From contig JASTWF010000034.1 of NCBI GenBank assembly GCA_030390025.1, positions 620,001 through 684,000 on the forward strand: a DNA stretch of 64,000 nucleotides, in the 5' to 3' direction. The DNA comes from Squalus acanthias. Lineage: Eukaryota. Made by a program: the position numbers and the translations under genes. The notes beneath the pieces are model-generated. The model was not told where the DNA came from. It worked only from the letters and a program-made list of their open reading frames with translations, and searched no databases. Shown here piece after piece: positions 1,773-35,936 of this stretch (positions within the stretch are counted from its first letter, which is position 1; the number at the start of each line of letters is the position of its first letter).

Positions 1773-1932
1773 CATCGGCCGAGCACACACACACAAACCC
1801 ACTCCTACTGTCCTCCTCCCTCTTCCCGCAGGTCCTCTCTGCCTGGGTTTCATAGGCTGCAGTGTGGTCCTCCCGACCCCGCTGCGCCACTCCTGGGCAT
1901 CGACCTCGCCCCTGGGCCCCGCCCTTCTCATC

Positions 1933-4319: not shown

Positions 4320-5025
4320 TGCACATTCACTTTCAATGACTCATGTACAAGGACACCCAGGTCCCTTTGTGCATCTGCGTTCCCCAATCTTTCACCATTT
4401 AGGAAATACTCTGCCTTTCTGTATTGTCTACCAAACTGGATAACTTCATATTTATCGACATTATATTCCATCTGCCATGTTCACCCCCCTCACTGAGCCC
4501 TTTGAGATCCCATGAAGTCTCTTCACATCTTCCTCACAACTGACACTGCCACCGAGGTTTGTATCATCAGCAAATTTGGAAATGTCACATTTAGTCCCCT
4601 CATCCAAATCCTTGGTATAGATTGTGAATAGCTGGGGCCCAAGCACCGATCCTTGCGGTACACCACTAGTCGCAGCCTGCCATCCTGAAAAAGTCCCGTT
4701 TTTCCCTACTCTTTGTTTTCTGTCTGTTAACCAATTCTCAATCCATGCTAGTATATTACCCCAAATTCAATGTGCCCTCATTTTGTTCACCAACCTCTTG
4801 TGTGGGACCTTATCGAAGGTCTTATGAAAATCCAGATACACCACATCTACCGGTTCCCCTTTGTCGACTCCACTAGTTACATCCTCAAAGAACTCCAATA
4901 TGTTTGTCAAACAGGATTTCCCTTTCATAAATCCATGCTGACTCTGCCCATCCTTACTATTAGTTTCTAAGTGCCCAGTTATTGCATCCTTTATAATAGA
5001 TTCCAGCATTTTCACAACTACTGAT
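4320..5025 (-). mobile_element. CR1 LINE reverse-transcriptase fragment (decayed)
   Basis: QHGFMKGKSCLTNILEFFE, VDVVYLDF, GSVLGPQLF and KFADDT motifs across broken frames. Confidence 0.93.
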
Positions 5026-5244
5026 CTACCTGCCCTAGGAATGTTTGATGGGACAGTGTAGAGGGAGCTTTACTCTTTATCTAACCCGTGCTTTACCTGC
5101 CCTGGGAGCATTTGATGGGACATTGTAGAGTGAGCTTTACTCTGTGTCTAAGCTGTGCTGTACCTGCAGTGAGAGTGTTTGATGCGACAGTGTGGAGAGA
5201 GCTTTACTCTATCTAACGCGTTCTGTACCTGTCTTGGGAGTGAT

Positions 5245-8229: not shown

Positions 8230-8872
8230 AACGGTATGTTGGCGTTCATTGCAAGAGGATTTTAGTACAGGAGCAAGAATGTCTTACTACAGTTATACAG
8301 GGCCTTGGTGAGACCACACCTGGTGTACTGTGTGCTGTTTTGTCTCCCTACCTAAGAAAGGATATACTTGCCATAGATGGAGTGCAGCGAAGGTTCACCA
8401 GACTGATTCCTTGGGATGACAGGACTGTCGTTTCAGGATAGGGTGGGTCGACTAGGCCTGTATTCACTAGATATTAGAGAAGGAATGGGCATCTGATTGA
8501 ATGGTATAAAATTCTGACTGTGCTAGACAGACTGGATGCAGGGAGGATGTTTCCCCTGGCTGGGGTGTCTAGAAGGAGGGGTCACAGTCTCAGGATACGG
8601 GGTAGGACATTTAGGACTGAGATGAGGAGAAATATCTTCACTCAGAGGGTGGTGAACCTGTGGAATTCTCTGCCACAGAGGCTGTGGTGTCCAAATCACT
8701 GAATATATTTAAGAAGGAGATAGATAGATTTCTAGACACAAAAGGCATCAAGGGGTATGGGGAGAGACGGGGAATTTGGTACTGAGATAGAGGAGCAGCC
8801 ATGATCATGTTGAATGGCGGAGCAGGCTCGAAAGGCCGAATGGCCGACTCCTGCTCCTATTTTTCTATGTTT
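8230..8872 (+). mobile_element. CR1 LINE 3' end (ORF2 C-terminus, 3' UTR, tail)
   Basis: FRTEMRRNIFTQRVVNLWNSLPQ, followed by a CR1-type 3' UTR ending ...GGCCGACTCCTGCTCCTATTTTTCTATGTTTC. Confidence 0.92.
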
Positions 8873-9879
8873 CAAACATGGACTGAACCTGCCCTGAGGT
8901 CCTTTTATGGGACAGTGTAGAGGGATCTTTACTCTGTATCTAACCCGTGCTGCACCTGCCCTGGGAGTGTATGGCGGGACAGTTTAGAGGGAACTTTACT
9001 CTGTCAAACATGTTCTGAACATGCCCTGGGAGTGTTTGATGGGACAGTGCAGAGTGAGAATTACTTTGTATCTAACCTGTGCTGAAACTGCCCTGGGTGT
9101 GTTTGATGGGACATGGTAGAGGGAGCTATGCTCTGTATCTTATCCTTGCTATACTTGCCCTGCGAGTGTTTGATGGGATAGTGTAGAGGGAGCTTTACTC
9201 TGTATCTTACCCATGCTGTACCTGCCCTGGGAGTGTTTGATGGGACAGTGTAGAGGGAGCCTTATTCTGTTTCTAATCCTTGCTGTACTTGCCCTGGGAG
9301 TGTTTGATGGGACAGTGCAGAGAGCGCTTTACTCTGTATCTAACCAGTGCTGTACCTGCCCTGGGAGTGTTTGATGGGACAGTGTTGATGCAGCTTTATT
9401 CTGTGTCTAACTCGTAGTCTGCCTGTCCTGGACGGGTTTGAAGGGACAGTGCAGGGGGAGCTCTACCCTGTATCAAACATGGTCTGAACTAACCATGGGA
9501 GTGTTTGATGGGACCGTGCAGAGATGAGCTTTACTCTGTATCTAACTCGTGCTGTACCTGCCCTGTGAGAGTTTGTTGGGCCAGTGTAGAGGGAGCTTTA
9601 CTCTGTATCTAACCTTTGCTGAAACTGCCCTGGGAGTGTTTGATGGGACAGTGCAGAGGGACCTTTACTCTGTATCTAACCTGTGCTGTACCTGCCCTGT
9701 GAGAGTTTGTTGGGACAGTGTCGAGGGACCTTTACTCTGTATCTAACCTTTGCTGAAACTGCCCTGGGAGTGTTTGATGGGACAGTGTAGAGGGAGATTT
9801 ACACTGTGTCTAAGTCGTGTTGTGCCTGTCCTGGGAGAGTTTGATGGGGCAGTGTTGGGGTAGATTTACTCTGCCTCTG

Positions 9880-10505
9880 ACCTATTCTGCCCAATTGGTT
9901 TGTGCCGGTGTTTATTCCCCACACAAGCCTCCTCTCACCCCTCTTCATCTAATTCTATTAGCATAACCTTATATTCCTTTCTCCCTCATGTGTTTATCTA
10001 GCTTCTCCTTAAATGCATCTGTACTATCCGCCTCCACTACTCCCTGTGGTAGCGAGTTCCACATTCTCACCTCTCTTTGGGTGAAGAATTTCTCCTGAAT
10101 TCTCCATTGGATTTATTAGTGACTATCTTATATTGATGATCTCCAGTTTTGGACTCCCACAAGTGGACACATTTTCTCCACGACCACCCTTTATAACCTT
10201 CTCATAATCTTAAAGACCTCTATCCGGTCATCCATCAGCATTCTCTTTCTTCAAGAGAAAAGAGACCCAGCCTGTTCAGCCTTTCCTGATAAGTATATCC
10301 TCTCAGTTTGAGGATCATCCTTACAAATCTCCTTCTCCAGTGCCTCTATATTAAGAACATAAGAAATAAGAGCAGGAGTAGGCCATTGGGCCCCTCGTAA
10401 TAATATGGAGACCAGAGCTTTTCACAGTACTCCAAGTATGATCTAACCCAGGGTCAGTACAAGTTTAACATAACCTCCCTGCTTTGCAATTCTATCCCTC
10501 TGCAA
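9880..10505 (-). mobile_element. Old CR1-type LINE 3' fragment with a short nested CR1 tail at ~10332-10378
   Basis: The reverse strand matches the CR1 C-terminus (RMWNSLPQG-like, from GAGTTCCACATTCTCAC). The insert TAAGAACATAAGAAATAAGAGCAGGAGTAGGCCATT is the reverse complement of a CR1 3' tail. Confidence 0.75.
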
Positions 10506-10514
10506 ATACCCCAA

Positions 10515-13500
10515 GCCCCTCACTGTAACACTTTGTGATATACTCCATTTCCCTCGCTGTAACACTCTTATATACCCGACACCCCTCAATGTAACACACT
10601 GATATAAACCCAGACCCCTGACTGTAACTCTCTGTTATACACCACACCCCTCACTGTAACAGTCTGATATGCCCAACACCGGTCATTGCATTACTCTGAT
10701 GTACCCCACACCCGTAACTGTAGCACTCTGATGCAAACCCACTCCCCTGACTACAGCACTCTGATATACCCCACACATGCCTTCGTGTAGCACACCGATA
10801 TACCCCACACCCCTTACGGTAACACCCTGATATACCCCTTAATTTAATCCTCTCTTACATATTTCAAACCTCTCACTGTAAGAGACCGATATACCCCACT
10901 CATCTCACTTTAACACTCTGATATACACCACACCCCTCGCTGTAACAATTTGATGTACCCCACACCCTTCACTGCAATAGTCAATTGTACCCCACACCCA
11001 TCACTATAATCTGATATACCCAACACCCCTCACTGTAACACTCTGATATAAACCACACCCCTCACTGTAACACTCTGATATACCCGACACTCCTGATTAT
11101 AACACTCTCTTACATACCCCCAGGAAGGGAAATGGTATGCTGGCCTTCATTACAAGAGGTTTGAGTACAGGAGTAAAGAAGTCTTACTCCATTTATTTAG
11201 GACCTTGGTGAGACCACACCTGGAGTACTGTGTACAATTTTGGTCTCCTTACCTTATTAAAGATATACTTGCCATAGAGGGAGTGCAATGAAGGTTCACG
11301 AGATTGATTCCTGGGAAGGCGGGACTGTCGTATGAGATGAGATTGAGTAAACTAGGCCTGTATTGTCTTCAATTCAGAGGAATGAGTGGGGATCTCATTG
11401 AAGCATTAAAAATTATTACAGGGCTTGATAGTTTGGATGCTGGGAGAATGTTTCCCTTGGCTGGGGAGTCTAGAACCAGGGGCCACAGCCTCATGATAAA
11501 GGGTAGGCCATTCAGGACTGAGATGAGAATCATAGAAACATAGAAGATAGGAGCATGACTCGGCCATTCGGCCCCTCGAGCCTGCTTCGCCATTTAATGC
11601 GATCATGGCTGATCGTCCAAATTCAGTACCCTGTCCCTGCTTTCTCCCCATATCCCCTGATCCCCTTAGCCTTAAGAAATATATGTAACTCTAATAAAGA
11701 CATTTCTTCACACAGAGGGTGGTGAATGTTTGGAATTCTCTACCCCAGAGGGCTGTGGAGGCTCAGTCATTGGGAATATTCAAAACAGAAGTGTATAGAT
11801 TTCTGACTAGTAAGGGCATCAAGGGATATCGAGATAAGGCCGGTGAATGGAATTGAGGCAGAAAATCAGCCATGATCGCATTGAATGGCGGAGCAGGCTC
11901 AACGGGCCGAATGGCCTACTCCTGCTCCTATTTCTTACATTCTTATGTTCTTAAACCTCTCACTGTAACACACCGTTTTACCCCAGGCCCCTCACTGTAA
12001 CACTCTCTGATATACTCCATACCCCTCACTGTAACACTCTCTGATATACTCCATACCCCTCACTGTAACACTCTGATATACCCAACACCCCTCACTGTAA
12101 CACTCTGATATACTCCATACCCCTCACTGTAACACTCTGATACACTCCATACCCCTCACTGTAACACTCTGATATATTCCATACCCCTCGCTGTAACACT
12201 CTGATATACTCCATACCCCTCACTGTAACACTCTGATATACCCATACCCCTCACTGTAACACTCTGATATACTCCATACCCCTCACTGTAACACTCTGAT
12301 ACACTCCATACCCCTCACTGTAACACTCTGATATACCCCACACCCCTCACTGTAACACTCTGATATACTCCATACCCCTCACTGTAACACTCTCTGATAT
12401 ACTCCATACCCCTCACTGTAACACTCTGATATACCCGACACCCTTCACTGTAACACTCTGATATACTCCTTACCCTTCACTGTAACACTCTCTGATATAA
12501 ACCCACACCCCTCAATGTAACACACTCTGATATACTCCATACCCCTCGCTGTAACACTCTGATATACCCGACACCCCTCACTGTAACACTCTCTGATATA
12601 CTCCATGCCCCTCACTGTAACACTCTGATATACCCCTCACTGTAACACTCTGATACACCCGACACCCCTCACTGTAACACTCTCTGATATACTCCACACC
12701 CCGCACTGTAACACACTGATATACCCGACACCCCTCACTGTAACACTCTGATATACTCCACACCCCTCACTGTAACACACCGTTTTACCCTAGGCCCCTC
12801 ACTGTAACACTCTCTGATATACCCAACACCCCTCACTGTAACACTCTGATATACTCCATACCCCTCACTGTAACACTCTGATATACTCTATACCTCTCAC
12901 TGTAACACTCTCTGATATACTCCATACCCCTCGATATAACACTCTGATATACTCCATACCCCTCACTGTAACACTCTCTGATATACCCGACACCCTTCAC
13001 TGTAACACTCACTGATATACTCCATACCCCTCACTGTACCACTGATATACCCAACACCCCTCACTGTAACACTCTGATATACTCCATACCCCTCACTGTA
13101 ACACTCTCTGATATACTCCATATCCCTCGCTATAACACTCTGATATACTCCGTACCCCTCACTGTAACACTCTCTGATATACTCCATACCCCTCAGTGTA
13201 ACACTCTGATATACCTGACACCCCTCACTGTAACACTCTGATATACTCCATACCCCTCACTGCAACACTCTCTGATATACTCCACACCCCTCACTGTAAC
13301 ACTCTCTGATATACTCCATACCCCTCACTGTAACACTCTGATATACCCAACACCCCTCACTGTAACACTCTGATATACTCCATACCCCTCACTGTAACAC
13401 TCTGATATACTCCACACCCCTCACTGTAACATTCTGATATACTCCATACCCCTCACTGTAAAACACTCATATAAACCCACACCCCTCAATGTAAAACACT

Positions 13501-15345
13501 CATATAAACCCACACCCCTCGCTGTAACACTCTCTGATATACTCCATACCCCTCACTGTAACACTCTCTGATATACGCCATACCCCTCACTGTAACACTC
13601 TCTGATATACTCGTTACTCCATACCCCTCACTGTAACACTGTGTTAATTAACCCAACACCGCTCATTGTATTACTCTGATGTACCCCACACCCCTCACTG
13701 TAGATCTTTGATGTAAACGCACTGCCCTGACTACAACACTCTGATATACCCCACACACCCTCACTGTAAATATCGATATACACAACACCCCTCACTGTAA
13801 CACTCTGATATAAACCCACGCCCCTGACTATAACAGTATGATATACCACACACCCCTCAATGTAACACGCTGATGTACCCCACACCCCTCACTGTGACAC
13901 TCGGACATACGACACACGACTCACTGTAACTCTCTGATATACCCCAGACACCTCACTGTAACTCTCTGATGTACTCCACACCCCTCAATGTAACACTCGG
14001 ATATACACCACACACCTCACTACAATACGCTGATAAACCCCACACCCCTCACTGTAACACGCTGATAAACCCCTCAATGTAATTCTCTCTTACATACTGA
14101 TATACCCCACACCCCTTACTGTAACTCTCTGATAAACCCCACGCCCCTCACTGTAACACTGATATACCCCACACCCCTCACTGTAACTCTCTGATAAACC
14201 CCACGCCCCTCACTGTAACACACTGATAAACCCCACACCCCTCACTGTAACACTCTGATACACCACTCAATGTAATTCTCTCTTACATACTGACTACACC
14301 TCCCACCACTCACTGTAACACGCTGATAACCCCCACACCATTCATTGTAACACTCTGATACACCCCACACCCTCATTTGTAAACACTCTGACTAACCCCA
14401 CACCCCTCACTGTAACTCTTGATACACCCCTCAATCTAATTCTCTCTTACATACTGATATACCCCACCACACCCTCACTGTAATAATCTGATAAACCCCA
14501 CACCCCACACTGTTATCACTTGATATGCTGCACACCCCTCACTGTAACACACTGATATACCCCACACCCTCACTAACACTCTGATAAACCCCACCCCTCA
14601 TTGTAACACTCTGATACACCCCTCAATGTAATTCTCTCTAACACACTGATATACCCCACACCACTCACTGTAACACTCTGATAAACCCCACGCCACTCAT
14701 TGTAACACTCTGATACACCCCTCAATGTAATTCTCTCTTACATACTGATATACCCCTCACCCCTCACTGTAATACTCTGATAAACCCCACACCCCACACT
14801 GTTACACTCTGATAAACACCACACCACTCAATGTAACACACTGATATACCCCACACCCCTCACTAACACTCTGATAAACACCACACCCCTCATTGTAACA
14901 CTCTGATACACCCCTCAATGTAATTCTCTCTTACATACTGATATACCCCACACCCCTCACTGTAACTCTCTGATATACCCCACTTCCCTCACTGTAACAC
15001 TGATATACCCCACACCCCACACTGTTACACTCTGACATACCCCACACCCCTCACTGTAACACTGATATACCCCACACCTCACACTGTTACACTCTGATAT
15101 ACCCCACACCCCTCACTGTAACACTGATATACCCCACACCCCACACTGTTACACTCTGATGTACCCCACACCACTCACTGTAACACTCTGATATACCCCA
15201 CACCACTCACTGTAACACTGATATACACCACACCCCACACTGTAACTCTGATAAAACCCACACACCTCATTGTAACACTCTGATACACCCCTCAATGTAA
15301 TTCTCTCTTACATACTGATACACCCCACACCACTCACTGTTGTCA
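10515..15345. repeat. ~32-bp minisatellite, unit CCCCTCACTGTAACACTCTGATATACTCCATA / ...ATACCCCACA, interrupted by a CR1
   Basis: Directly visible. Homogeneous core ~11990-13600 with diverged flanks. Confidence 0.95.
11123..11951 (+). mobile_element. CR1 LINE 3' end with a nested opposite-strand CR1 tail (~11531-11695)
   Basis: IPGKAGLSYEMRL...GDLIEALKII...FRTEMR breaks at ~11530 and resumes at GACATTTCTTCACACAGAGGGTGGTG. It ends in a TTCTTACATTCTTATGTTCTTA tail. Confidence 0.92.
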
Positions 15346-15609
15346 CTGCCACTTTAATCCCATGGGCTTCAATGTTGGTAATATGTGATCCTTTATCAAG
15401 CACCTTTTGTAATGTTTGGGAAATTGGGAAAGTGTGAGTTGTATCAATCATACAACGATAGAATTGGAGATCCAAGTGCGGTTGACAATTTGTTTAGCGT
15501 ACTTGACGCCCCGCTCTGATCACAGGCCTCATCTGGTTTCAATCAATGAATTATAAAATCATTGATTTTAATCCTATTTTATTATTTCGATGTATTTGTT
15601 CTCAGACTA

Positions 15610-15787
15610 GGGGTGACGCTGTCAAGGTTGGTATCACTTGTCCATCCCTAGTTACCCATGAGAAAATGGTGGGCCTTCATCTTGATCCGCTGCAGTCCGT
15701 GTGGTGAAGGTACTCCCACAATACTGTTACTGAAGGATTTTCAAGCTTTTGACCCAGTGACGATGAAAGAACGGCGATATATTTGAA
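15610..15787 (-). mobile_element. Decayed 3' end of a non-LTR retroelement (same family as 34991-35345)
   Basis: Matches 35030-35190 (CCGCTGCAGTCC..GTGGTGAAGGTACTCCCACA..TTTTGACCCAG..GATGAA). Confidence 0.75.
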
Positions 15788-16171
15788 GGGTACGGTAGCA
15801 TAGTGGTTATGTTGCTGGACTCGTTAATACCAGATGACTCGACAAATGATCCAGAGACATGTGTTCAAATCCCAAAAGCTGGGGGAATTTAAATGCCATT
15901 AATTAAACAAATCTGGAATGAAAAGCTTGTGTAAATCTGGAATAAAACCCAATTGGTTCACTAATGGCCTTTTGGGAAGGAAATCTGCCTTCCTCACCTG
16001 TTCTGGCTGAAATGTGACTTCAGACCCACTGCAATGTGGTTGACTCTTAACTGGTCTCTGTAATGGGCCATCAAGACACTCGCTTGTCTCAGGCGGCTTA
16101 CCACCCCATTCTCAAGGGCAATTAGGGATGGGCAGTAAATGCTGGCCTTGTCAGTCGTGCCCACATCCCAA
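15788..16171 (+). mobile_element. tRNA-derived SINE with a LINE-derived 3' tail
   Basis: A-box-like GGTAGCATAGTGGTT, B-box-like GTTCAAATCCC, and a 3' tail CTCAAGGGCAATTAGGGATGGGCAGTAAATGCTGGCC shared with the LINE end at ~35000. Confidence 0.8.
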
Positions 16172-16479
16172 CAATTAGTTATTCAAATGATTTATTAAGT
16201 GTCAATGATTGAAAACGCATCATAATGGTCATAATGATTTATAAAGGGTTATAAAAGATCTGTAAAGTGGTGTAATGATTTTAAAGGTTTATAATGACTA
16301 AAAAAGTCCTGGTGCCAGGCCATCTCCTCCCAGGGCTGGGGTGCTCGGTGTCCTGTGGGCCGTGCCGGGCCAGGCTGCTCCGCCTCGCCGCCCGCTCTCA
16401 CAGTAACCGGGATTCCAACTGCTCCCGCCATCCGGACACTCACCTCCCGCCGCCAGGGAAAGACCCCGAGTGACGGCCG

Positions 16480-19400
16480 CAATCTTTGTACGGGGCCCCA
16501 GAGCCGCCATCTTTGTGCGGAGCCCTAGAGCCGCAATCCTTGTGCGGGGCCCCAGAGCCGCAATCGTTGTGCAGGGCCCCAGATCCGCCATCTTTGTGCG
16601 GGGCCCAATAGCCGCCATCTTTCAGTCGGGCGCAGGAGCCACCATTTTTGTGCTGGGCCCTAGAGCCGCCATCTTTGTGCTGGGCGTGGGGATGGGGGAG
16701 AGCCGCCATCATTGCGCGGGGCATCAGTGCCGCCATCTTTCTGCGGGGCGCGGGTGCCCCCACCTTTGTGCTTGGACCCAGAGCTGCCATTTGTGTGCGG
16801 GGCCCCAGAGCCGCCATCTTTCTGCTGTGTCCCAGAGCCGTCATCTTTCTGCTGGGTCCCAGAGCCGCCATCTTTGTGCCTGGACACAGAGCAGCCATCT
16901 TTGTGCTGGGTTCCAGTGCCGCCATCTTTTTGCAGTGCCCCAGAGGCGCCATCTTTGTGCGGAGCCCATGAGCCGCCATTTTTGGGCGGGAACCAGAGCC
17001 GCCATCTTTATGCGGAGCCCCGGAGCCGCCATCATTGTGCTTGCTCCCCAGAGCCGCCATCTTTGTGCGGAGCCCATGAGCCGCTATTTTTGGGCGCGAA
17101 CCAGAGCCGCCATCTTTATGCGGAGCCCCGGAGCCCCCATCATTGTGCTTGCTCCCCAGAGCCGCCATCCTTGTGCTGGGCCCGAGAGCTGCCTTCTTTG
17201 TGCGGGGAACTAGAGCTGCCATCTTTGTGCGGTGCCCCAGAGCCGCCATTTTTGTGCGGGAACCAGAGCCGCCATCTTTGTGCGGGGCCCCAGATCCGCC
17301 ATCTTTTTGCGGGAGCCCCGGAGCCTCCATTTTTGTGCGGGAACCAGAGCCGCCATCTTTGTGCGGGGCCCCAGATCCGCCGTCTTTGTGCGGAGCCCCG
17401 GAGCCTCCATCTTTGTGCTGGGCCCCAGAGCCGCCGTCTTTGTGCGGGGCCCCAGAGCCGCCGTCTTTGTGCGGGGCCCCAGAGCCGCCGTCTTTGTGCG
17501 GAGCCCCGGAGCCTCCATCTTTGTGCTGGGCCCCAGAGCCGCCGTCTTTGTGCGGGGCCCCAGAGCCGCCGTCTTTGTGCGGGGCCCCAGAGCCGCCGTC
17601 TTTGTGCTGGGCCCCAGAGCCGCCTTCTTTGTGCTGGGCCCAGAGCCGCCGTCTTTGTGCTGGGCCCCAGAGCCGCCGTCTTTGTGCTGGGCCCCAGAGC
17701 GCCGTCTTTGTGCTGGGCCCCAGAGCCCGCCGTCTTTGTGCTGGGCCCCAGAGCCGCCGTCTTTGTGCTGGGCCCCAGAGCCGCCGTCTTTGTGCTGAGC
17801 CCCAGACCCGCCGTCTTTGTGCTGGGCCCCAGAGCCGCCGTCTTTGTGCTGGGCCCCAGACCCGCCGTCTTTGTGCTGGGCCCCAGAGTCGCCGTCTTTG
17901 TGCTGGGCCCCAGACCCGCTGTCTTTGTGCTGGGCCCCAGAGTCGCCGTCTTTGTGCTGAGCCCCAGAGCCGCCGTCTTTGTGCGGGGACCCGGAGCCGC
18001 CATCGTTGTGCGGGGCCCACCCCAGAGCCGCCGTCTTTGTGCTGGGCCCCAGAGCCGCCGTCTTTGTGCGGGGCCCCAGAGCCGCCGTCTTTGTGCGGGG
18101 CCCCAGAGCCGCCGTCTTTGTGCGGGGCCCCAGAGCCGCCGTCTTTGTGCGGGCCCCAGAGCCGCCTTCTTTGTGCTGGGCCCCAGAGCCGCCATCTTTG
18201 TGCGGGGCCCCAGAGCCGCCATCTTTGTGCGGGGCCCCAGAGCCGCCATCTTTGTGCGGGGCCCCAGAGCCGCCATCTTTATGCGGGCCCCGGAGCCGCC
18301 ATCTTTATGCGGGGCCCCGAGCCGCCATCTTTGTGCGGGGCCCCAGAGCCGCCATCTTTGTGCGGGGCCCCAGAGCCGCCATCTTGTGCGGGGCCCCAGA
18401 GCCGCCATCTTTATGCTGGGCCCCGGAGCCGCCATCTTTATGCGGGGCCCCAGAGCCGCCATCTTTATGCGGGGCCCCAGAGCCGCCATCTTTGTGCGGG
18501 GCCCCAGAGCCGCCATCTTTGTGCGGGGCCCCAGAGCCGCCATCTTTATGCGGGGCCCCAGAGCCGCCATCTTTGTGCGGGGCCCCAGAGCCGCCGTCTT
18601 TGTGCGGGGCCCCAGAGCCGCCATCTTTGTGCGGGCCCCAGAGCCGCCATCTTTGTGCGGGGCCCCAGAGCCGCCATCTTTATGCGAGGTCCCCAGAGCA
18701 GCCGTCTTTGTGCTGAGCCCCAGACCCGCCATCTTTGTGCGTGGCCCCGAGAGCCGCCATCTTTGTGCGGGGCCCCAGAGCCGCCATCTTTGTGCTGGTC
18801 CCAGAGCCGCCATCTTTGTGCGGGGCCCCAGAGCCGCTGTCTTTGTGCTGGGCCCCGGAGCCGCCATCTTTGTGCTGGGCCCAGAGCCGCCGTCTTTGTG
18901 CGGGGCCCCAGAGCCGCCGTCTTTGTGCTGGTGCCCAGAGCCGCCATCTATGGTGCGGGCCCCAGAGCCGCCGTCTTTGTGCGGGGCCCCAGAGCCGCCA
19001 TCTTTATGCGGGTCCCCAGAGCCGCCATCTTTATGCGGGGCCCCGGAGCCGCATCTTTATGCGGGGGCACCGGAGCCGCCATCTTTGTGCGGGGCCCCAG
19101 AGCCGCCATCTTTGTGCGGGGCCCAGAGCCGCCATCTTTGTGCTGGGCCCCAGAGCCGCCGTCTTTGTGCGGGCCCCAGAGCCGCCGTCTTTGTGCTGGG
19201 CCCCAGAGCCGCCGTCTTTGTGCTGGGCCCCAGAGCCGCCGTCTTTGTGCTGGGCCCCAGAGCCCGCAGTCTTTGTGCTGGGCCCCAGAGCCCGCCGTCT
19301 TTGTGCTGGGCCCCAGAGCCGCCGTCTTTGTGCTGGGCCCCAGAGCCGCCGTCTTTGTGCGGGGCCCCAGAGCCGCCGTCTTTGTGCTGAGCCCCAGAGC

Positions 19401-22400
19401 CGCCATCTTTGTGCTGAGCCCCAGAGCCGCCGTCTTTGTGCGGGGCCCCAGAGCCGCCATCTTTGTGCTGGGCCCCAGAGCCGCCATCTTTGTGCGGGGC
19501 CCCAGAGCCGCCATCTTTTTGCGGGGAACCAGAGCCGCCCTCTTTGTGCGGTGCCCCAGAGCCGCCATTTTTGTGCGGCAACCAGAGCCGCCATGTTTAT
19601 GCGGGGCCCCGGAGCCGCCATATTTGTGCGGGGCCCCAGAGCCGCCATCTTTGTGCTGAGTCCCAGAGCCGCCATCTTTGTGCGGGTCCCCAGAGCCGCC
19701 ATCTATGTGTGGGACCCAGAGCCGCCATGTTTATGCGGGGCCCCGGAGCCCCCATATTGGTGCAGGGCCCCAGAGCCGCCATCTGTGTGCTGAGTCCCAG
19801 AGCCGCCATCTTTGTGCGGGTCCCCAGAGCCGCCATCTTTATGCGGTGCCCCGGAGCCGCCATCTTTGTGCGGGGCCCCGGAGCCGCCATCTTTATGTGG
19901 GGCCCCGGAGCCGCCATCTTTGTGCTGAGCCCCAGAGCCGCCATCTATGTGTGGGACCCAGAGCCGCCGTCTTTATGCGGGGCCCCAGTCCCGCCATCTT
20001 TATGCGGGGCCCCGGAGCGGCCATCTTTATGCGGGGCCCCGGTGCCGCCATCTTTATGCGGGGCCCCGGAGCCGCCATCTTTGTGCTGAGCCCCAGAGTC
20101 TCCATCTTTGTGCGGGGCCCCAGAGTCTCCATCTTTGTGCTGGGCCCCAGAGCCGCCATCTTTGTGCGGGGCCCCAGAGCCGGCATCTTTTTGCGGGGAA
20201 CCAGAGCCGCCCTCTTTGTGCGGTGCCCCAGAGCCGCCATTTTTGTGCGGCAACCAGAGCCGCCATGTTTATGCGGGGCCCCGGAGCCGCCATATTTGTG
20301 CGGGGCCCCAGAGCCGCCATCTTTGTGCTGAGTCCCAGAGCCGCCATCTTTGTGCGGATCCCAGAGCCGCCATCTATGTGTGGGACCCAGAGCCGCCATG
20401 TTTATGCGGGGCCCCGGAGCCCCCATATTGGTGCAGGGCCCCAGAGCCGCCATCTGTGTGCTGAGTCCCAGAGCCGCCATCTTTGTGCGGGTCCCCAGAG
20501 CCGCCATCTTTATGCGGTGCCCCGGAGCCGCCATCTTTGTGCGGGGCCCCGGAGCCGCCATCTTTTTGCGGGGCCCCGGAGCCGCCATCTTTGTGCTGAG
20601 CCCCAGAGCCGCCATCTATGTGTGGGACCCAGAGCCGCCGTCTTTATGCGGGGCCCCAGTCCCGCCATCTTTATGCGGGGCCCCGGAGCGGCCATCTTTA
20701 TGCGGGGCCCCGGTGCCGCCATCTTTATGCGGGGCCCCGGAGCCGCCATCTTTGTGCTGAGCCCCGGAGCCGCCATCTATGTGTGGGACCCAGAGCCGCC
20801 GTCTTTATGCGGGGCCCCAGACCCGCCATCTTTATGCGGGGCTCCGGAGCGGCCATCTTTATGCGGGGCCCCGCAGCCGCCATCTTTGTGCTGAGCCCCA
20901 GAGCCGCCATCTTTGTGCGGGGCCCCAGAGCCGCCATCTTTGTGCGGGGCCCCAGAGCCGCCGTCTTTATGCGCGGCCCCAGAGCCGCCATCTTTGTGCG
21001 GGGCCCCAGAGCCGCAATCCTTGTGCGGGGCCCCAGAGCCGCCATCTTTGTGCGGGGCCCCAGAGCCGCCGTCTTTATGCGGGGCCCCAGAGCCGCCGTC
21101 TTTGTGCGGGACCCCAGAGCCGCCATCTTTATGCAGAGCCCCGGACCCGCCATCTTTATGCGGGGCCCCGGAGCCGCCATTTTTATGCAGGGCCCAGGAG
21201 CCGCCACCTTTGTGCGGGGCCCCAGAGCCGGCATCTTTGTGCGGGGCCCCAGAGCCGCCGTCTTTATGCGGGGCCCCAGAGCTGCCATCTCTGTGCGGGG
21301 GCCCCAGAGCCGCCGTCTTTATGAGGGGCCCCAGAGCCGCCATCTTTGTGCGGGGCCACAGAGCCGCCATCTTTGTGAGGGGCCCCAGAGCCACCATCTC
21401 TGTGCGGGGGCCCCAGAGCCGCCGTCTTTATTAGGGGCCCAATAGCCGCCACCTTTGTGCGGAGCCCCATATCCGCAATCCTTGTGCGGGGCACCAGAGC
21501 CGCAATCCTTGTTCTGGGCCCCAGAGCCGCCATCTTTATGCGGGGCGCCAGAGCCGCCGTCTTTGTGCGGGGCCCCAGAGCTGCCATCTTTATGCGGGGC
21601 GCCAGTGCCGCCGTCTTTATGCGGGGCCCCAGAGCCGCCATCTAAGTGCTGAGCCCCAGAGCTGCCGTCTTTGTGCGGGGCCCCGGAGCCGCCGTCTTTG
21701 TGCGGGGCCCCAGACCCGCCATCTTTGTGCGGGCCCCAGAGCCGCCATCTTTGTGCGGGGCCCCAGAGCCGCATCTTTGTGCGGGGCCCCAGAGCCGCCA
21801 TCTTTGTGCGGGGCCCCAGAGCCGCCATCTTTGTGCGGGGCCCCAGAGCCGCCATCTTTGTGCGGGGCCCCAGAGCCGCCATCTTTGTGCGGAGCCCCAG
21901 AGCCGCCATCTTTGTGCTGGGCCCCAGAGCCGCCATCTTTGTGCGGGGCCCCAGAGCCGCCATCTTTGTGCGGGGCCCAGAGCCGCCATCTTTGTGCGGG
22001 GCCCCAGAGCCGCCATCTTTGTGCGGGCCCCAGAGCCGCCATATTTATGCGGGCACCCAGAGCCGCCATCTTTGTGCGGGCCCCAGAGCCGCCACCTTTG
22101 TGCGGGGCCCCAGAGCCGCCATCTTTGTGCTGAGCTCCAGAGCCGCCATCTTTGTGCGGGGCCCCAGAGCCGCCATATTTGTGCGGGCCCCAGAGCCGCC
22201 GTCTTTATGCACGGCCCCAGAGCCGCCATCTTTGTGCGGGGCCCCAGAGCCGCCATCTCTGTGCGGGGCCCCAGAGCCGCCATCTCTGTGCGTGGCCCCA
22301 GAACCGCCATCTCTGTGTGGGGCCCCAGAGCCGCCATCTTTATGCGGAGCCCCGGATCCGCCATCTTTATGCGGGGCCCCGGAGCCGCCATCTTTATGCG

Positions 22401-25400
22401 GGGCCCCGGAGCCGCCATCTTTATGAGGGGCCCAAGAGCCGCCATCTTTGTGCGGGGCCACAGAGCCGCCATCTTTGTGAGGGGCCCCAGAGCCGCCATC
22501 TCTGTGCGGGGGCCCCAGAGCCGCCGTCTTTATTAGGGGCCCAATAGCCGCCACCTTTGTGCGGAGCCCCATATCCGCAATCCTTGTGCGGGGCACCAGA
22601 GCCGCAATCCTTGTTCTGGGCCCCAGAGCCGCCATCTTTATGCGGGGCGCCAGAGCCGCCGTCTTTGTGCGGGGCCCCAGAGCTGCCATCTTTATGCGGG
22701 GCCCCCAGAGCCGCCGTCTTTATGAGGGGCCCCAGGGCCGCCATCTTTGTGCGGGGCCCCAGAGCCGCCGTCTTTTCTGCGGCGCCCCAGAGCCGCCATC
22801 TTTGTGCGGGGCCCCGAAGCCGCCATCTTTGTGCGGCTCCCCAGAGCCGCCATCTTTATGCGGGGCCCCAGAGCTGCCGTCTTTGTGCAGAGCCCGGAGC
22901 CTCCATCTTTGTGCGGGGCCCCGGATCCGCCGTCTTTGTGCGGGGCCCCAGAGCCGCAATCCTTGTGCGGGGCCCCAGAGCCGCCGTCTTTATGCGGGGC
23001 CCCAGAGCCGCCGTCTTTGTGCGGGACCCCAGAGCCGCCATCTTTATGCAGAGCCCCGGACCCGCCATCTTTATGCGGGGCCCGGAGCCGCCATTTTTAT
23101 GCAGGGCCCCGGAGCTGCCACCTTTGTGCGGGGCCCCAGAGCCGGCATCTTTGTGCGGGGCCCCAGAGCCGCCGTCTTTATGCGGGGCCCCAGAGCTGCC
23201 ATCTCTGTGCGGGGGCCCCAGAGCCGCCGTCTTTATGAGGGGCCCCAGAGCCGCCATCTTTGTGCGGGGCCACAGAGCCGCCATCTTTGTGAGGGCCCCA
23301 GAGCCACCATCTCTGTGCGGGGGCCCCAGAGCCGCCGTCTTTATGAGGGGCCCCAGAGCCGCCATCTTTGTGAGGGGCCCCAGAGCCGCCATCTCTGTGC
23401 GGGGGCCCCAGAGCCGCCGTCTTTATTAGGGGCCCAATAGCCGCCACCTTTGTGCGGAGCCCCATATCCGCAATCCTTGTGCGGGGCACCAGAGCCGCCA
23501 TCTTTATGCGGGGCGCCAGAGCCGCCGTCTTTGTGCGGGGCCCCAGAGCTGCCATCTTTATGCGGGGCGCCAGTGCCGCCGTCTTTATGCGGGGCCCCAG
23601 AGCCGCCATCTTTGTGCGGGGCCCCAGAGCCGCCATCTTTGTGCGGGGCCCCAGAGCCGCCATCTTTGTGCTGGGCCCCAGACCCGCTGTCTTTGTGCTG
23701 GGCCCCAGAGCCGCCGTCTTTGTGCTGGGCCCCAGAGTCGCCGTCTTTGTGCTGGGCCCCAGAGCCGCCATCTTTGTGCTGAGCCCCAGACCCGCCGTCT
23801 TTGTGCTGGGCCCCAGAGCCGCCGTCTTTGTGCTGAGCCCCAGAGCCGCCATCTTTGTGCTGAGCCCCAGAGCCGCCACCTTTGTGCGGGGCCCCAGAGC
23901 CGCCATCTTTGTGCTGAGCTCCAGAGCCGCCATCTTTGTGCGGGGCCCCAGAGCCGCCATATTTGTGCGGGGCCCCAGAGCCGCCGTCTTTATGCACGGC
24001 CCCAGAGCCGCCATCTTTGTGCGGGGCCCCAGAGCCGCAATCCATGTGCGGGGCCCCAGAGCCGCCATCTCTGTGCGTGGCCCCAGAGCCGCCATCTCTG
24101 TGCGGGGCCCCAGAGCCGCCATCTTTATGCGGAGCCCCGGATCCGCCATCTTTATGCGGGGCCCCGGAGCCGCCATCTTTATGCGGGGCCCCGGAGCCGC
24201 CATCTTTGTGCGGGGCCCCAGAGCCGCCATCTTTGTGCGGGGCCCCAGAGCCGCCATCTTTGTGCGGGGCCCCAGAGCCGCCGTCTTTATTCGGGGCCCC
24301 ATAGCCGCCACCTTTGTGCGGGGCCCCATAGCCGCAATCCTTGTGCGGGGCCCCAGAGCCGCAATCCTTGTGCTGGGCCCCAGAGCCGCCATCTTTGTGC
24401 GGGGCCCCAGAGCCGCCATCTTTGTGCGGGGCCCCAGAGCTGCCATCTCTGTGCGGGGGCCCCAGAGCCGCCGTCTTTATGAGGGGCCCCAGGGCCGCCA
24501 TCTTTGTGCGGGGCCCCAGAGCCGCCGTCTTTGTGCGGGGCCCCAGAGCCGCCATCTTTGTGCGGGGCCCCGAAGCCGCCATCTTTGTGCGGCTCCCCAG
24601 AGCCGCCATCTTTATGCGGGGCCCCAGAGCTGCCGTCTTTGTGCGGAGCCCCGGAGCCTCCATCTTTGTGCGGGGCCCCGGAGCCGCCGTCTTTGTGCGG
24701 GGCCCCGGATCCGCCATCTTTGTGCGGGTCCCCGGAGCCGCCATCTTTGTGCGGGGCCCCAGAGCCGCCGTCTTTGTGCGGGGACCCGGAGCCGCCATCT
24801 TTGTGCGGGGCCCACCCCAGAGCCGCCGTCTTTGTGCGGGGCTGCAGAGCCGCCGTCTTTGTGCGGGGCCCCAGAGCCGCTGTCTTTGTGCGGGGCCCCA
24901 GAGCCGCCGTCTTTGTGCGGGTCCCCAGAGCCGCCATCTTTGTGCTGGGCCCCAGAGCCGCCGTCTTTGTGCTGGGCCCCAGAGCCGGCGTCTTTGTGCT
25001 GGGCCCCAGACCCGCCGTCTTTGTGCTGGGCCCCAGAGCCGCCATCTTTGTGCTGAGTCCCAGAGCCGCCATCTATATGTGGGACCCAGAGCCGCCATGT
25101 TTATGCGGGGCCCCGGAGCCCCCATATTGATGCAGGGCCCCAGAGCCGCCATCTGTGTGCTGAGTCCCAGAGCCGCCATCTTTGTGCGGGTCCCCAGAGC
25201 CGCCATCTTTATGCGGGGCCCCGGAGCCGCCATCTTTGTGCTGAGCCCCAGAGCCGCCATCTATGTGTGGGACCCAGAGCCGCCGTCTTTATGCGGGGCC
25301 CCAGTCCCGCCATCTTTAGGCGGGGCCCCGGAGCGGCCATCTTTATGCGGGGCCCCGGTGCCGCCATCTTTATGCGGGGCCCCGGAGCCGCCATCTTTGT

Positions 25401-28400
25401 GCTGAGCCCCAGAGCCGCCATCTATGTGTGGGACCCAGAGCCGCCGTCTTTATGCGGGGCCCCAGACCCGCCATCTTTATGCGGGGCCCCGGAGCGGCCA
25501 TCTTTATGCGGGGCCCCGGAGCCGCCATCTTCATGCGGTGCCCCGGAGCCGCCATATTTGTGCGGGTCCCCAGAGCCGCCATCTTTGTGCGGGGCCCCAG
25601 AGCCGCCATCTTTGTGCTGAGCCCCAGAGCTGCCATCTTTGTGCGGGTCCCCAGAGCAGCCATCTTTGTGCTGAGCCCCAGAGCCGCCATCTTTTTGCGG
25701 GGAACCAGAGCCGCCATCTTTGTGCGGGTCCCCAGAGCCGCCATCTATGTGTGGGACCCAGAGCCGCCATATTTATGCGGGGCCCCGGAGCTGCCATATT
25801 TGTGCGGGGCCCCAGAGCCGCCATCATTATGCTGAGTCCCAGAGCCGCCATCTTTGTGTGGGTCCCCAGAGCCGCCATCTATGTGTGGGACCCAGAGCCG
25901 CCATCTTTGTGCGGTTCCCCAGAGCCGCCATCTATGTGTGGGACCCAGAGCCGCCATATTTATGCGGGGCCCCGGAGCCCCCATATTGGTGCGGGGCCCC
26001 AGAGCCGCCATCTTTGTGCGGGTCCCCAGACCCGCCATCTTTATGCGGGGCTCCGGAGCGGCCAGCTCTATGCGGGGCCCCGGAGCCGCCATATTTGTGC
26101 GGGTCCCCAGAGCCGCCATCTTTGTGCAGGGCCCCAGAGCCGCCATCTTTGTGCGGTTCCCCAGAGCCACCATATTTATGCGGGGCCCCAGAGCCGCCAT
26201 TTTTGTGCTGAGCCCCAGAGCCGCCATCTTTGTGCGGGTCCCCAGAGCAGCCATCTTTGTGCTGAGCCCCAGAGCCGCCATCTTTGTGCGTGGCCGAGGA
26301 GCCGCCATATTTGTGCGGGGCCCCAGACCCGCCATCTTTGTGTTGAGTCACAGAGCCGCCATCTTTGTGCGGGTCCCCAGAGCCGCTATCTTTATGCGGG
26401 GCCACGGAGCCGCCAGCTTTGTGCGGGGCCCCGGAGCCGCCATCTTTATGCGGGGCCCCGGAGCCGCCATCTTTGTGCTGAGCCCCGGAGCCGCCATCTA
26501 TGTGTGGGACCCGGAGCCGCCGTCTTTATACGGGGCCACAGAGCCGCCATCTTTATGCGGGGCCCCGGAGCAGCCATCTTTATGCGGGGCACCGGAGCCG
26601 CCATCTTTATGCGGGGCTCCGGAGCCGCCATATTTGTGCGGGGCCCCAGAGCCGCCATCTTTGAGCTGAGCCCCAGAGCCGCCGTCTTTATGCGCGGCCC
26701 CGGAGCCGCCATCTTTGTGCGGGTCCCCAGAGCCGCCATCTTTATGCGGGGCCCCGGAGCCGCCATCTTTGTGCTGAGCCCCAGAGCCGCCATCTATGTG
26801 TGGGACCCAGAGCCGCCGTCTTTATGCGGGGCCCCAGTCCCGCCATCTTTAGGCGGGGCCCCGGAGCGGCCATCTTTATGCGGGGCCCCGGAGCCGCCAT
26901 CTTTGTGCTGAGCCCCAGAGCCGCCATCTATGTGTGGGACCCAGAGCCGCCGTCTTTATGCGGGGCCCCAGACCCGCCATCTTTATGCGGGGCCCCGGAG
27001 CGGCCATCTTTATGCGGGGCCCCGGAGCCGCCATCTTCATGCGGTGCCCCGGAGCCGCCATATTTGTGCGGGTCCCCAGAGCCGCCATCTTTGTGCGGGG
27101 CCCCAGAGCCGCCATCTTTGTGCTGAGCCCCAGAGCTGCCATCTTTGTGCGGGTCCCCAGAGCAGCCATCTTTGTGCTGAGCCCCAGAGCCGCCATCTTT
27201 TTGCGGGGAACCAGAGCCGCCATCTTTGTGCGGGTCCCCAGAGCCGCCATCTATGTGTGGGACCCAGAGCCGCCATGTTTATGCGGGGCCCCGGAGCCGC
27301 CATATTTGTGCGGGGCCCCAGAGCTGCCATCATTATGCTGAGTCCCAGAGCCGCCATCTTTGTGTGGGTCCCCAGAGCCGCCATCTATGTGTGGGACCCA
27401 GAGCCGCCATCTTTGTGCGGTTCCCCAGAGCCGCCATCTATGTGTGGGACCCAGAGCCGCCATATTTATGCGGGGCCCCGGAGCCCCCATATTGGTGCGG
27501 GGCCCCAGAGCCGCCATCTTTGTGCGGGTCCCCAGACCCGCCATCTTTATGCGGGGCTCCGGAGCGGCCAGCTCTATGCGGGGCCCCGGAGCCGCCATAT
27601 TTGTGCGGGTCCCCAGAGCCGCCATCTTTGTGCAGGGCCCCAGAGCCGCCATCTTTGTGCGGTTCCCCAGAGCCACCATATTTATGCGGGGCCCCAGAGC
27701 CGCCATTTTTGTGCTGAGCCCCAGAGCCGCCATCTTTGTGCGGGTCCCCAGAGCAGCCATCTTTGTGCTGAGCCCCAGAGCCGCCATCTTTGTGCGTGGC
27801 CGAGGAGCCGCCATATTTGTGCGGGGCCCCAGACCCGCCATCTTTGTGTTGAGTCACAGAGCCGCCATCTTTGTGCGGGTCCCCAGAGCCGCTATCTTTA
27901 TGCGGGGCCACGGAGCCGCCAGCTTTGTGCGGGGCCCCGGAGCCGCCATCTTTATGCGGGGCCCCGGAGCCGCCATCTTTGTGCTGAGCCCCGGAGCCGC
28001 CATCTATGTGTGGGACCCGGAGCCGCCGTCTTTATACGGGGCCACAGAGCCGCCATCTTTATGCGGGGCCCCGGAGCAGCCATCTTTATGCGGGGCACCG
28101 GAGCCGCCATCTTTATGCGGGGCTCCGGAGCCGCCATATTTGTGCGGGGCCCCAGAGCCGCCATCTTTGAGCTGAGCCCCAGAGCCGCCGTCTTTATGCG
28201 CGGCCCCAGAGCCGCCATCTTTGTGCGGGGCTCCAGAGCCGCAATCCTTGTGCGGGGCCCCAGAGCCGCAATCCTTGTGCTTAGCCTCAGAGCCGCCATC
28301 TCTGTGCGGGGCCCCAGAGCCGCCATCATTGTGCGGGTCCCCAGAGCCGCCATCTTTATGCGGAGCCCCGGACCCGCCATCTTTATGCGGGGCCCCGGAG

Positions 28401-30635
28401 CCGCCATTTTTATGCTGGGCCCAGGAGCCGCCATCTTTGTGCGGGGCCCCAGAGCCGCCATCTTTGTGCGGGGCCCCAGAGCTGCCATCTCTGTGCTGGG
28501 CCCCATAGCCGCCATCTTTATGCGGGGCCCCAGAGCCGCCATCTCTGTGCGGGGGCCCCAGAGCCGCCGTCTTTATGAGGGGCCCCAGAGCCGCCATCTT
28601 TGTGCGGGGCACCAGAGCCGCAATCCTTGTGCTGGGCCCCAGAGCCGCCATCTTTATGCGGGGCGCCAGAGCCGCCGTCTTTGTGCTGAGCCCCAGAGCC
28701 GCCGTCTTTGTGCTGAGCCCCAGAGCCGCCATCTTTGTGCTGAGCCCCAGAGCCGCCATCTTTGTGCGGGGCCCCAGAGCCGCCATCTTTGTGCTGAGCC
28801 CCAGAGCCGCCATCTTTGTGCGGGGCCCCAGAGCCGCCATCTAAGTGCTGAGCCCCAGAGCCGCCGTCTTTGTGCTGAGCCCCAGAGCCGCCGTCTTTGT
28901 GCGGGGCCCCAGAGCCGCCATCTTTGTGCGGAGCCCCTGAGCCGCCATCTTTGTGCGGGTCCCCAGAGCCGCCATCTTTATGCGGGTCCCCAGAGCCGCC
29001 GTCTTTGTGCGGGGCCCCGGAGCCGTCATCTTTGTGCGGGGCCCCGGAGCCGTCATCTTTGTGCGGGGCCCCGGAGCCGCCGTCTTTGTGCGGGTCCCCG
29101 GAGCCGCCGTCTTTGTGCGGGTCCCCAGAGCCGCCGTCTTTGTGCGAGGCCCCAGAGCCGCCGTCTTTGTGCTGGGCCCCAGAGCCGCCATTTTTGTGCT
29201 GGGCCCCAGAGCCGCCGTCTTTGTGCTGGGCCCCAGAGCCGCCGTCTTTGTGCTGGGCCCCAGAGCCGCCGTATTTGTGCTGGGCCCCAGAGCCGCCGTC
29301 TTTGTGCTGGGCCCCAGAGCCGCCGTCTTTGTGCTGGGCCCCAGAGCCGCCATCTTTTTGCGGGGAACCAGAGCCGCCCTCTTTGTGCGGTGCCCCAGAG
29401 CCGCCATTTTTGTGCGGGAACCAGAGCCGCCATGTTTATGCGGGGCCCCGGAGCCGCCATATTTGTGCGGTGCCCCAGAGCCGCCATCTTTGTGCTGAGT
29501 CCCAGAGCCGCCATCTTTGTGCGGGTCCCCAGAGCCGCCATCTATGTGTGGGACCCAGAGCCGCCATCTTTGTGTGGGTCCCCAGAGCCGCCATCTATAT
29601 GTGGGACCCAGAGCCGCCATGTTTATGCGGGGCCCCTGAGCCCCCATATTGGTGCAGGGCCCCAGAGCCGCCATCTGTGTGCTGAGTCCCAGAGCCGCCA
29701 TCTTTGTGCGGGTCCCCAGAGCCGCCATCTTTTTGCGGGGCCCCGGAGCCGCCATCTTTTTGCGGGGCCCCGGAGCCGCCATCTTTATTCGGGGCCCCGG
29801 AGCCACCATCTTTGTGCTGAGCCCCACACCCGCCGTCTTTGTGCTGAGCCCCAGACCCGCCGTCTTTGTGCTGAGCCCCAGACCCGCTGTCTTCATGCTG
29901 AGCCCCAGACCCGCTGTCTTCATGCTGAGCCCCAGACCCGCCGTCTTTGTGCTGAGCCACAGACCCGCCATCCTTGTGCTGAGCCCCAGACCCGCTGTCT
30001 TTGTGCTGAGCCCCAGAGCCGCCGTCTTTGTGCTGGGCCCCAGAGCCGCCGTCTTTGTGCTGGGCCCCAGAGCCGCCTGTCTTTGTGCTGAGCCCCAGAC
30101 CCGCTGTCTTTGTGCTGAGCCCCAGACCCGCCGTCTTTGTGCTGAGCCCCAGAGCCGCCGTCTTTGTGCTGAGCCCCAGACCCGCCGTCTTTGTGCTGAG
30201 CCCCAGAGCCGCTGTCTTTGTGCTGAGCCCCAGAGCCGCTGTCTTTGTGCTGAGCCCCAGACCCGCTGTCTTTGTGCTGAGCCCCAGAGCCGCTGTCTTT
30301 GTGCTGAGCCCCAGAGCCGCTGTCTTTGTGCTGAGCCCCAGACCCGCCGTCTTTGTGCTGAGCCCCAGACCCGCTGTCTTTGTGCTGAGCCCCAGACCCG
30401 CTGTCTTTCTGCTGAGCCCCAGACCCGCTGTCTTTGTGCTGAGCCCCTGACCCGCTGTCTTTGTGCTGAGCCCCAGAGCCGCCGTCTTTGTGCTGGGCCC
30501 CAGAGCCGCCATCTTTCTGCTCAGCCCCAGACCCGCTGTCTTTGTGCTGGTCCCCAGAGCCGCCGTCTTTGTGCTGAGCCACAGAGCCGCTGTCGTTGTG
30601 CTGGGCCCCAGAGCCGCCGTCTTTGTGCGGGGGGC
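16480..30635. repeat. 14-kb GC/CpG-rich 27-bp minisatellite, unit GAGCCGCCATCTTTGTGCGGGGCCCCA (~520 copies), carrying the YY1 consensus motif
   Basis: Directly visible. The 9-codon unit explains the stop-free ORFs (KMAALGPRT, GAPEPPSLC etc.). The core CCGCCATCTT matches the established YY1 motif CCGCCATNTT. Confidence 0.97.
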
Positions 30636-30692
30636 CACATTATCAGGCCCAGGGAACTGTCAACTCTTGGACTGCAAAGTCTCCGCTTCTTC

Positions 30693-31594
30693 TCATCCTT
30701 TAATGAATTTTACAATCAGAGTAAAGGGATATTTCCCCACATTCTTCAACTGCTCTCTGAACTTAGTCTGGGTCACGGCGTAAATCCCAGTGTTTGTGCA
30801 GCAACTCAGCAGCTGCAGCATGAATCCCAGTTCCATGACATAACCAGGTAGAATTACAGACTGATACCCCAACCACGTCATCCGGTTCCATATAAAATAC
30901 ACCATAAACACTGCCCATAACAGGATGAAATTGCCGGAGATAACAAGCAGTAAAATGATGGATTTCCTGCGGCTCTCCATCTCTGGGTCTCTGGGACTCT
31001 CCCCACTGCTGGGACCCCGGAGTCTCCTGCGGGCTCTGCTGGCCACTAAAATGTGTCTGACGGTGACAGCATTGAGCAGCAGAATCACCACAAATGGGAC
31101 ACACGGGGTGAGAATATAATGAAGGAGCTCGATTGGTCCCCAGACCCGTGAATACTGAACATCCATTGTGACATCACAAAACCAGGGGAGGTTCCGAAGC
31201 CAATACGACCTGACAACATAAAATACCAGGTGATGTTCTTTAAACCGCTCAGCACAGTCACTGTTCCCAGAACCACAGCCGCCGTTTTCTCGGTGCAATA
31301 TTTAGTTTTCAGCTTCTGGCAACAAATGGCCACAAATCGATCAAAGGTGAAAGTGACGGTGAACCAGACAGAACAGTCTGTGGCTGCGAACAGCAGGACG
31401 GCGTGGATATTACACACGGGGATCGGAATACACGAAATCAAACTGTTCCCTATAAACAATCGGAATGTGCCTCAATATCAGGTCGAGGATAACGACCAGT
31501 AGATCCGCCGCTGCCATGGCCACCAGGTAGCGAGTGACACATTTGGAGAGACCACACTTTCCCCGAGACAGGATCACAATCGTCAATAAGTTCA
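30693..31594 (-). CDS. Exon 2 of the GPR139-like GPCR (TM1 end to C-terminus; two frameshifts)
   Basis: Preceded by the acceptor CTGTTTATTTCCCTTCCTCACAG. ORFs 31410-31595, 31085-31459 and 30693-31298 are consecutive pieces of one 7TM protein. Confidence 0.88.
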
Positions 31595-35736: not shown

Positions 35737-35770
35737 TGTTTTGAATTAATAACTGGACATAGATCCTTAC

Positions 35771-35861
35771 TAGGAACGCCGACAGCAGTGAGGAGGGGAT
35801 AGTACATATTTTGTATATCATAACATATTCCTAATATCTTAAGCACTTCACCCCAATCTAT
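35771..35861 (-). CDS. Exon 1 of the GPR139-like GPCR (N-terminus and first half of TM1); start codon uncertain
   Basis: Reads (I)DWGEVLKILGICYDIQNMYYPLLTAVGVP followed by the donor A|GTAAGG, in phase with exon 2. The only in-frame ATG is at 35807; ATA at 35861 may be a mutated start. Confidence 0.78.
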
Positions 35862-35936
35862 GCCTTCGCTTCTGTGAGTGTCTGGTGGTCTTTGTGCTGG
35901 GGGCAGCGCGCGGACTGTGTGAGGTGACACAGTGAA

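Follow-up and report, generated by a model that had tools for sequence, protein, structure and literature searches.

A 2.5-kb tandem repeat in the first intron of Peg3 carries about 10 YY1 sites, and the available text of that study calls the role of such clustered sites unknown (PMC4196374). The 5' ends of mammalian L1 elements start with a YY1 motif and are YY1-initiated, and rodent L1 leaders consist of tandem monomers, according to the accessible portions of two articles (PMC5381506, PMC11602158). The second of these states, in the same portion, that the YY1 sites of mouse L1 Tf monomers have an activating effect on the promoter and that CpG methylation lowers binding (PMC11602158). In many human promoters a YY1 site overlaps the start codon, as given in an excerpt that cites Xi et al. 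(PMC3429435). GC-AG introns are described as enriched in first introns and lncRNAs in an extract of a further article (PMC7242645). Simple tandem repeats abound on short shark chromosomes, as far as the consulted part of one preprint goes (10.1101/2022.10.17.512540).

Here we describe a locus where a 27-bp minisatellite with a YY1-type motif ends in a GC-rich flank. It lies in a 64-kb stretch of DNA, which we call the window. An earlier note had read 16290-16520 as a CpG-island first exon whose start-codon region was amplified into the satellite. We give about even weight to a different reading, in which 16290-16520 represents the old, anchored terminus of a cassette that exists in several copies and not a protein start. 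The cassette consists of the 27-bp YY1-motif minisatellite, the GC-rich flank and an AT-rich tail, and is possibly promoter-derived. The copy in the window is most likely either inert or able to yield no more than unspliced non-coding RNA.

Results

The window and its 27-bp array

The window is composed mostly of tandem repeats and LINE remnants, and a GPR139-like receptor is its sole recognisable host gene (Table 1). A young 31-bp GC-rich array (1933-3772, 89% matches) is located directly upstream of a minus-strand LINE endonuclease remnant. A second 31-bp array spans 22 kb (40774-62593), and a 658-aa reverse-transcriptase frame is inserted in it (RVT_1, E 8.4e-32; 47025-49001, minus strand). 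The receptor intron contains a DDE_Tnp_4 (Harbinger-type) nuclease fragment (33884-34306, plus strand, E 7.7e-19), with a 54-bp tandem repeat beside it at 34661-34989.

Table 1. Positions of the array, its flank and the neighboring features in the window
Feature	Position	Strand	Remarks
27-bp GC-rich minisatellite	16476..30641 (array run 16476-30632)	-	about 525 units, 14 kb
Old, unhomogenised array end	16476..17172	-	singleton units and nearest-unit distance
Putative exon end, 32 nt past the array	16444..16475	-	carries TGGCGGC core at 16455
Donor-like AG/GTGAGT	16438..16445	-	G at 16443
GC-rich flank past the donor	16306..16437	-	second leftover core GATGGCGG at 16432-16425
AT-rich tail	16171..16305	-	GC 0.24, weak 19-bp tandem
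High-copy interspersed repeat bounding the flank	15682..16170	+	80% to copy at 63513-63995
Exon 2 of broken GPR139-like receptor (7tm_1)	30693..31594	-	two frame breaks, near 31420 and 31200
First exon of that receptor gene	35771..35900	-	donor at 35770

A perfect AAGATGGCGGC is present in 191 of the 525 whole array units, in tandem repetition. The motif is of the YY1 type, as the earlier note had proposed, and is like those of Peg3 and L1 as far as the accessible accounts of these describe them. By sequence, the array is a candidate clustered YY1 repeat of the Peg3 type. AAGATGGCGG was not found outside the array in the 64-kb window. The triplet in the start slot is ATG in 347 units, ACG in 118, ACA in 19 and ATT in 15. 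Array ATGs are distributed over the three frames (143/110/116), and 73 of the 525 units differ from 27 nt in length.

The array is polar, and its oldest, ATG-carrying end is located at the flank. Of the 25 units closest to the flank, 24 are singletons within the array. Their mean distance to the nearest other unit is 2.44 letters, compared to 0.0-0.76 in the other 20 blocks. The last 26 units at the flank include 21 with ATG and none with ACG, and the terminal unit carries ATT. The rest of the array is homogenised, with ATG, ACG and ACA mixed. An exact duplication of 882 nt at a 1506-bp offset is found within the array (window 25820-28210), and is either a recent unequal exchange or an assembly duplication.

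The flank and its relation to the array

Past the array, the minus strand reads as had been reported, in its letters, its frame (…MAALGPRTKIAAVTRGLSLAAG, phase 1) and the AG/GTGAGT sequence. The reported change from GC-rich to AT-rich sequence below about 16300 is also present, from a GC content of 0.71 in 16306-16475 to 0.24 in 16171-16305. The description as a CpG island is not confirmed for the flank. CpG islands are longer than 200 bp, with GC above 50% and CpG o/e above 0.6. The GC-rich flank extends over about 170 nt with a CpG o/e of 0.68, which is not above the 0.62-0.68 of the array, and these values are reached only when it is joined with the array.

Two leftover TGGCGG cores are found in the flank, on either side of the donor. 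The first, at 16455, is in exact 27-nt register with the array, and the second, at 16430, is 25 nt further. Both cores at this 27- and 25-nt spacing occurred in 4 of 20000 shuffles, a count made post hoc. The in-register blocks match the unit at 11/27 and 7/27 positions and, apart from the cores, have no likeness to it. They may be much older units, or a founder stretch with cores at such spacing in which slippage set the period. Either reading ties the origin of the array to the flank, and under either the 'exon' and the 'intron' belong to a single uninterrupted sequence. The proposed amplification of a 5'UTR/ATG region thus keeps part of its ground: the polar array, the old ATG end at the flank and the leftover cores are consistent with it, and its coding-exon part is not borne out.

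The flank was described as unique, and within the 64-kb window we found no second copy. Outside the window it is not unique, as at least three different versions are present in one sequencing run. Exact DNA patterns gave 0 matches for the flank in metagenome contigs and 0 for the array unit in viral and prokaryote contigs. An Rfam search returned 0 matches, and a profile scan found nothing below E 2.8.

In the earlier proposal, (M)AAVTRGLSLAAG would be a first exon that encodes protein, in a housekeeping gene whose start-codon region was amplified. No stop interrupts the frame between the ATG at 16510 and the donor, and the change that related contigs show at 16475 is synonymous in this frame. 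The YY1 sites that overlap human start codons, which are indeed described in the excerpt cited above (PMC3429435), and start-region amplification in sharks (17 of 120 listed receptor models, see below) also fit this proposal. However, the unit at the head of the unique part carries ATT, and the closest ATG, at 16510, belongs to the preceding unit. Instead of many in-frame upstream ATGs there are three (16618, 16591 and 16510) after an in-frame TGA at 16624. The junction exists in several diverged copies, unlike a housekeeping gene.

Neither a protein homologue nor, downstream, a domain other than those of transposons was found for this exon. Searches of 1345 and of 7 candidates with the exon frame gave no match at E≤10, which weighs little for 13 unique residues. 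The search of 1345 candidates missed P0021, one of the repeat proteins discussed below, and is therefore insensitive. The 50 matches of a third protein search are repeat proteins of a 9-residue type, and none of them matches the unique flank residues. Among 66 minus-strand frames of at least 45 aa in 1-16300, four matched RVT_1, one an endonuclease and one, in a repeat, gave a weak match below the cut-off; 60 were blank, in a frame and domain search that is insensitive to short or non-coding exons. No partner exon for the donor is recognisable within 16 kb, a range and search that short, non-coding or out-of-window exons would escape. We consider a coding first exon highly improbable.

Beyond the GC-rich part, the AT-rich tail contains TATAAA at 16293 and 16243 and AATAAA at 16196. 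The spacing of 47 nt between TATAAA and AATAAA, together with the multi-copy junction, would be compatible with a mobile element, of which this would be the 5' or a terminal portion, either an L1-like leader of YY1 monomers or an LTR with a runaway enhancer repeat. The YY1 start of mammalian L1s and the tandem monomers of rodent leaders point in the same direction, in the accessible text of both articles (PMC5381506, PMC11602158). An L1-type leader is followed, after its monomers and a spacer, by ORF1. No ORF1, gag or transposase was found after the flank, and the longest frame past it is short. The flank has neither an inverted nor a direct match at the other array end. We regard a mobile-element origin as very unlikely.

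The tail is bounded by a high-copy interspersed repeat, very deep in all four sequencing runs compared, which we take to be a CR1/SINE-type tail.

Related copies of the junction

Contigs of sequencing runs X1, X2, X3 and X5 were aligned to 15350-16620 at 85% likeness, and X4 was left out. All five runs with part of this region (shares 0.09-0.19) carry the guess 'RNA?' and may be DNA. Our comparison lists 40 of 151 differences, 15 of 24 joints, 24 of 403 loose ends and 32 of 4166 pieces; at 85% likeness, high-copy repeats crowd the table of loose ends. Cover is absent at 16210-16467 in X3 and at 16296-16467 in X5, where contigs show presence and not absence. The AT-rich tail is found in X2 contigs and partly in X5.

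The array-flank junction is present in several copies at about 86-94% identity. X1 records 4, 5 and 6 overlap over 16431-16505 and differ from the window at 7, 6 and 18 positions, respectively. X2 record 14 (16169-16520) has 22 differences and 14 gap letters, and X2 record 15 (16409-16546) has 15 differences. At least three versions in X1 exceed one diploid locus, unless the sample was pooled. The multi-copy junction fits the alternative of a duplicated orphan promoter, which the earlier note had also raised.

For the donor, called perfect in that note, conservation as GT is not supported. With C at its +2 base (16442) it reads GC in five of the six contigs that cover it, and it reads GT in one and in the window. 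The GC form is carried by three X1 contigs (depth 65.6 of 71.7) and two X2 contigs (17.3 of 17.3). X1 record 4, to which subtraction assigns a depth of 6.0, shares the GT of the window. CpG transitions account for this difference and for 3 of the 10 flank differences listed, which suggests methylation of the flank copies.

X2 records 14 and 15 cross the donor as continuous sequence under a 31-letter rule. Summed depth is equal at 16475 and 16442 (71.7/71.7 in X1, 17.3/17.3 in X2), so no compared contig ends at the donor. No joint at the donor is present among the 15 of 24 joints listed, in runs that may be DNA. The contigs establish that unspliced sequence and the GC form exist, and splicing may still occur. 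GC donors are enriched in first introns, and GC copies could therefore still splice.

AGGTRAGT occurs a single time in the whole window, both strands counted, where 4.46 are expected by chance. Within the 176-nt flank, it arose in 18 of 5000 shuffles, and a donor form with GT or GC in 48 of 5000, both counted post hoc. Such a context, improbable by chance in the flank, may indicate that a multi-copy gene or lncRNA family has its working promoter and a non-coding first exon here. YY1 would bind the old units, transcription would begin in them, and the GT/GC donor would join the short exon to a distant one. The GC-rich then AT-rich profile and the maintenance of the junction at about 86-94% identity argue in the same way. 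The enrichment of GC-AG introns in first introns and lncRNAs (PMC7242645) and the tandem YY1 sites that drive mouse L1 Tf promoters (PMC11602158), both from the accessible text, provide precedents. Against this, no compared contig covering 16475 ends at the donor, a point that is weak if the runs are DNA. Close copies carry both GT and GC, and the CpG transitions suggest that the flank is methylated. We consider this possibility somewhat unlikely.

The receptor gene at the other end of the array

The GPR139-like receptor belongs to a very large shark family, with 1432 matches. In the best 120 of these (P0062-P0181), it is 68-81% identical to shark models named 'probable G-protein coupled receptor 139', which places the window in a cartilaginous fish. 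Seventeen of these 120 listed models have at least two tandem 14-residue, Met-initiated units at the N terminus, which indicates start-region amplification within the GPR139-like family. No in-frame ATG for exon 1 was found in the stretch translated, and no array- or flank-coded words were found in the 120 listed receptor proteins. A search of mainly open-access articles listed no paper on the array repeat or on a shark GPR139-like expansion. The array unit motifs appeared in one unrelated paper.

The receptor stop codon (TGA, 30695-30693) is located about 50 nt before the first partial array unit, on the same strand. The array and flank could therefore be the 3' untranslated region of this gene, with the AT-rich sequence as its end and AATAAA at 16196 as the polyadenylation signal. 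X2 record 14 ends at 16169, 22 nt past this signal. The usual distance from a polyadenylation signal to the transcript end is 10-30 nt. However, 16169 is also the edge of the high-copy repeat, where contigs break, and in X1-X3 the sequence beyond 16170 (15350-15936) has a similar depth. The reading frame of the receptor is itself disrupted. In addition, the receptor-side end of the array is its younger end, which suggests a later juxtaposition of array and receptor. We regard a 3' untranslated region as quite unlikely.

A likeness of the initial 20 nt of the flank to a 19-nt stretch upstream of receptor exon 1, at 35958-35977 (minus strand; 18/20, one gap), was rejected. Among whole-flank shuffles, 18 of 100 scored as high; with the first 30 nt alone, 2 of 200 did, a post hoc count. 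The likeness is not beyond chance and is left unproven. Separately, 14 nt at 35890-35903 (minus strand) match an array unit variant.

Discussion

Our analysis favors, at about even confidence, an old cassette end over a protein start. Several points speak against a cassette: the donor context in the flank is better than chance (18 and 48 of 5000 shuffles), one X1 contig carries GT, the in-register blocks are unlike the unit apart from their cores, and the three versions in one run could reflect pooled individuals.

The cassette may have formed as follows. The founder would be a GC-rich, promoter-like stretch in which TGGCGG cores recurred every 25-27 nt. From these cores, slippage or unequal exchange would then produce the 27-nt unit. 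Further unequal exchanges would make the array grow away from the flank; its polarity and the 1506-bp internal duplication are observed. The array end and flank would have been copied, together with neighboring DNA, into several places, where different versions are now observed by whatever route they arose. CpG deamination would toggle ACG, ATG and ACA in the units, and GC and GT at the donor.

It is about an even chance that CpG decay has shaped both the ATG and the GT in the cassette: the pattern is seen in the units and copies, and decay would be its presumed direction. If the cassette reading is true, the locus is another shark minisatellite with a visible birthplace. It also carries a caution, that CpG decay inside a repeat family can make a textbook donor and ATG.

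A bolder proposal would make the locus functional. The YY1 initiator of a shark gene or lncRNA family would have been amplified to a minisatellite that reaches 14 kb and carries about 190 perfect YY1 sites. Its old units would serve as the promoter, and the first exon would be the 32-nt flank with its GT/GC donor. Decay from ACG to ATG would make new YY1 sites, and array length and methylation would tune expression. We consider this proposal unlikely. Should it be true, the near-identical 27-nt unit in an unrelated sequence cluster would suggest an old or recurrent vertebrate element. A working promoter would also make this a YY1-site array about 20 times larger than that of Peg3, and its natural variation in length could be used to study the role of clustered YY1 sites.

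Comparison with known systems

Mouse L1 Tf and other mammalian L1 leaders, as described in the accessible portions, share with the array a head-to-tail arrangement of YY1-motif units followed by a non-repeated spacer, and a CpG in the motif. In these portions, L1 monomers are about 200 bp long, few, and followed by ORF1, whereas the array has about 525 copies of 27 bp, with no ORF1 found.

The Peg3-DMR, in the available text of its description, is likewise a tandem repeat beside a promoter and first exon, with a YY1 site in its unit. This site is GGCGCCATCTT in Peg3 and GCCGCCATCTT in the array, on the plus strand. The same text places about 10 sites per 2.5 kb in the Peg3 first intron, with binding and function demonstrated. 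In contrast, the array lies upstream of the putative exon, spreads 191 perfect candidate sites over 14 kb, and has a multi-copy junction without a gene.

The repeat proteins P0021 and P0052-P0061, from Logan, ENA and JGI contigs, contain variable numbers of a MAALGPQHK unit, which implies a 27-nt YY1-motif repeat. Ten of the 50 repeat-protein matches were checked, and none is annotated as a shark protein. No locus for P0053 was found in three DNA collections, and an Atlas search with P0021 gave nothing above 0.82. These proteins have 2-6 tandem 9-residue units of the MAALGPQHK type followed by non-repeated sequence, in an arrangement like that of the array and its flank. They are 62-78% identical to the MAALGP frame of the array; the repeat matches, and the flank does not. 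From this comparison of sequences, either kinship or convergence may link them to the array.
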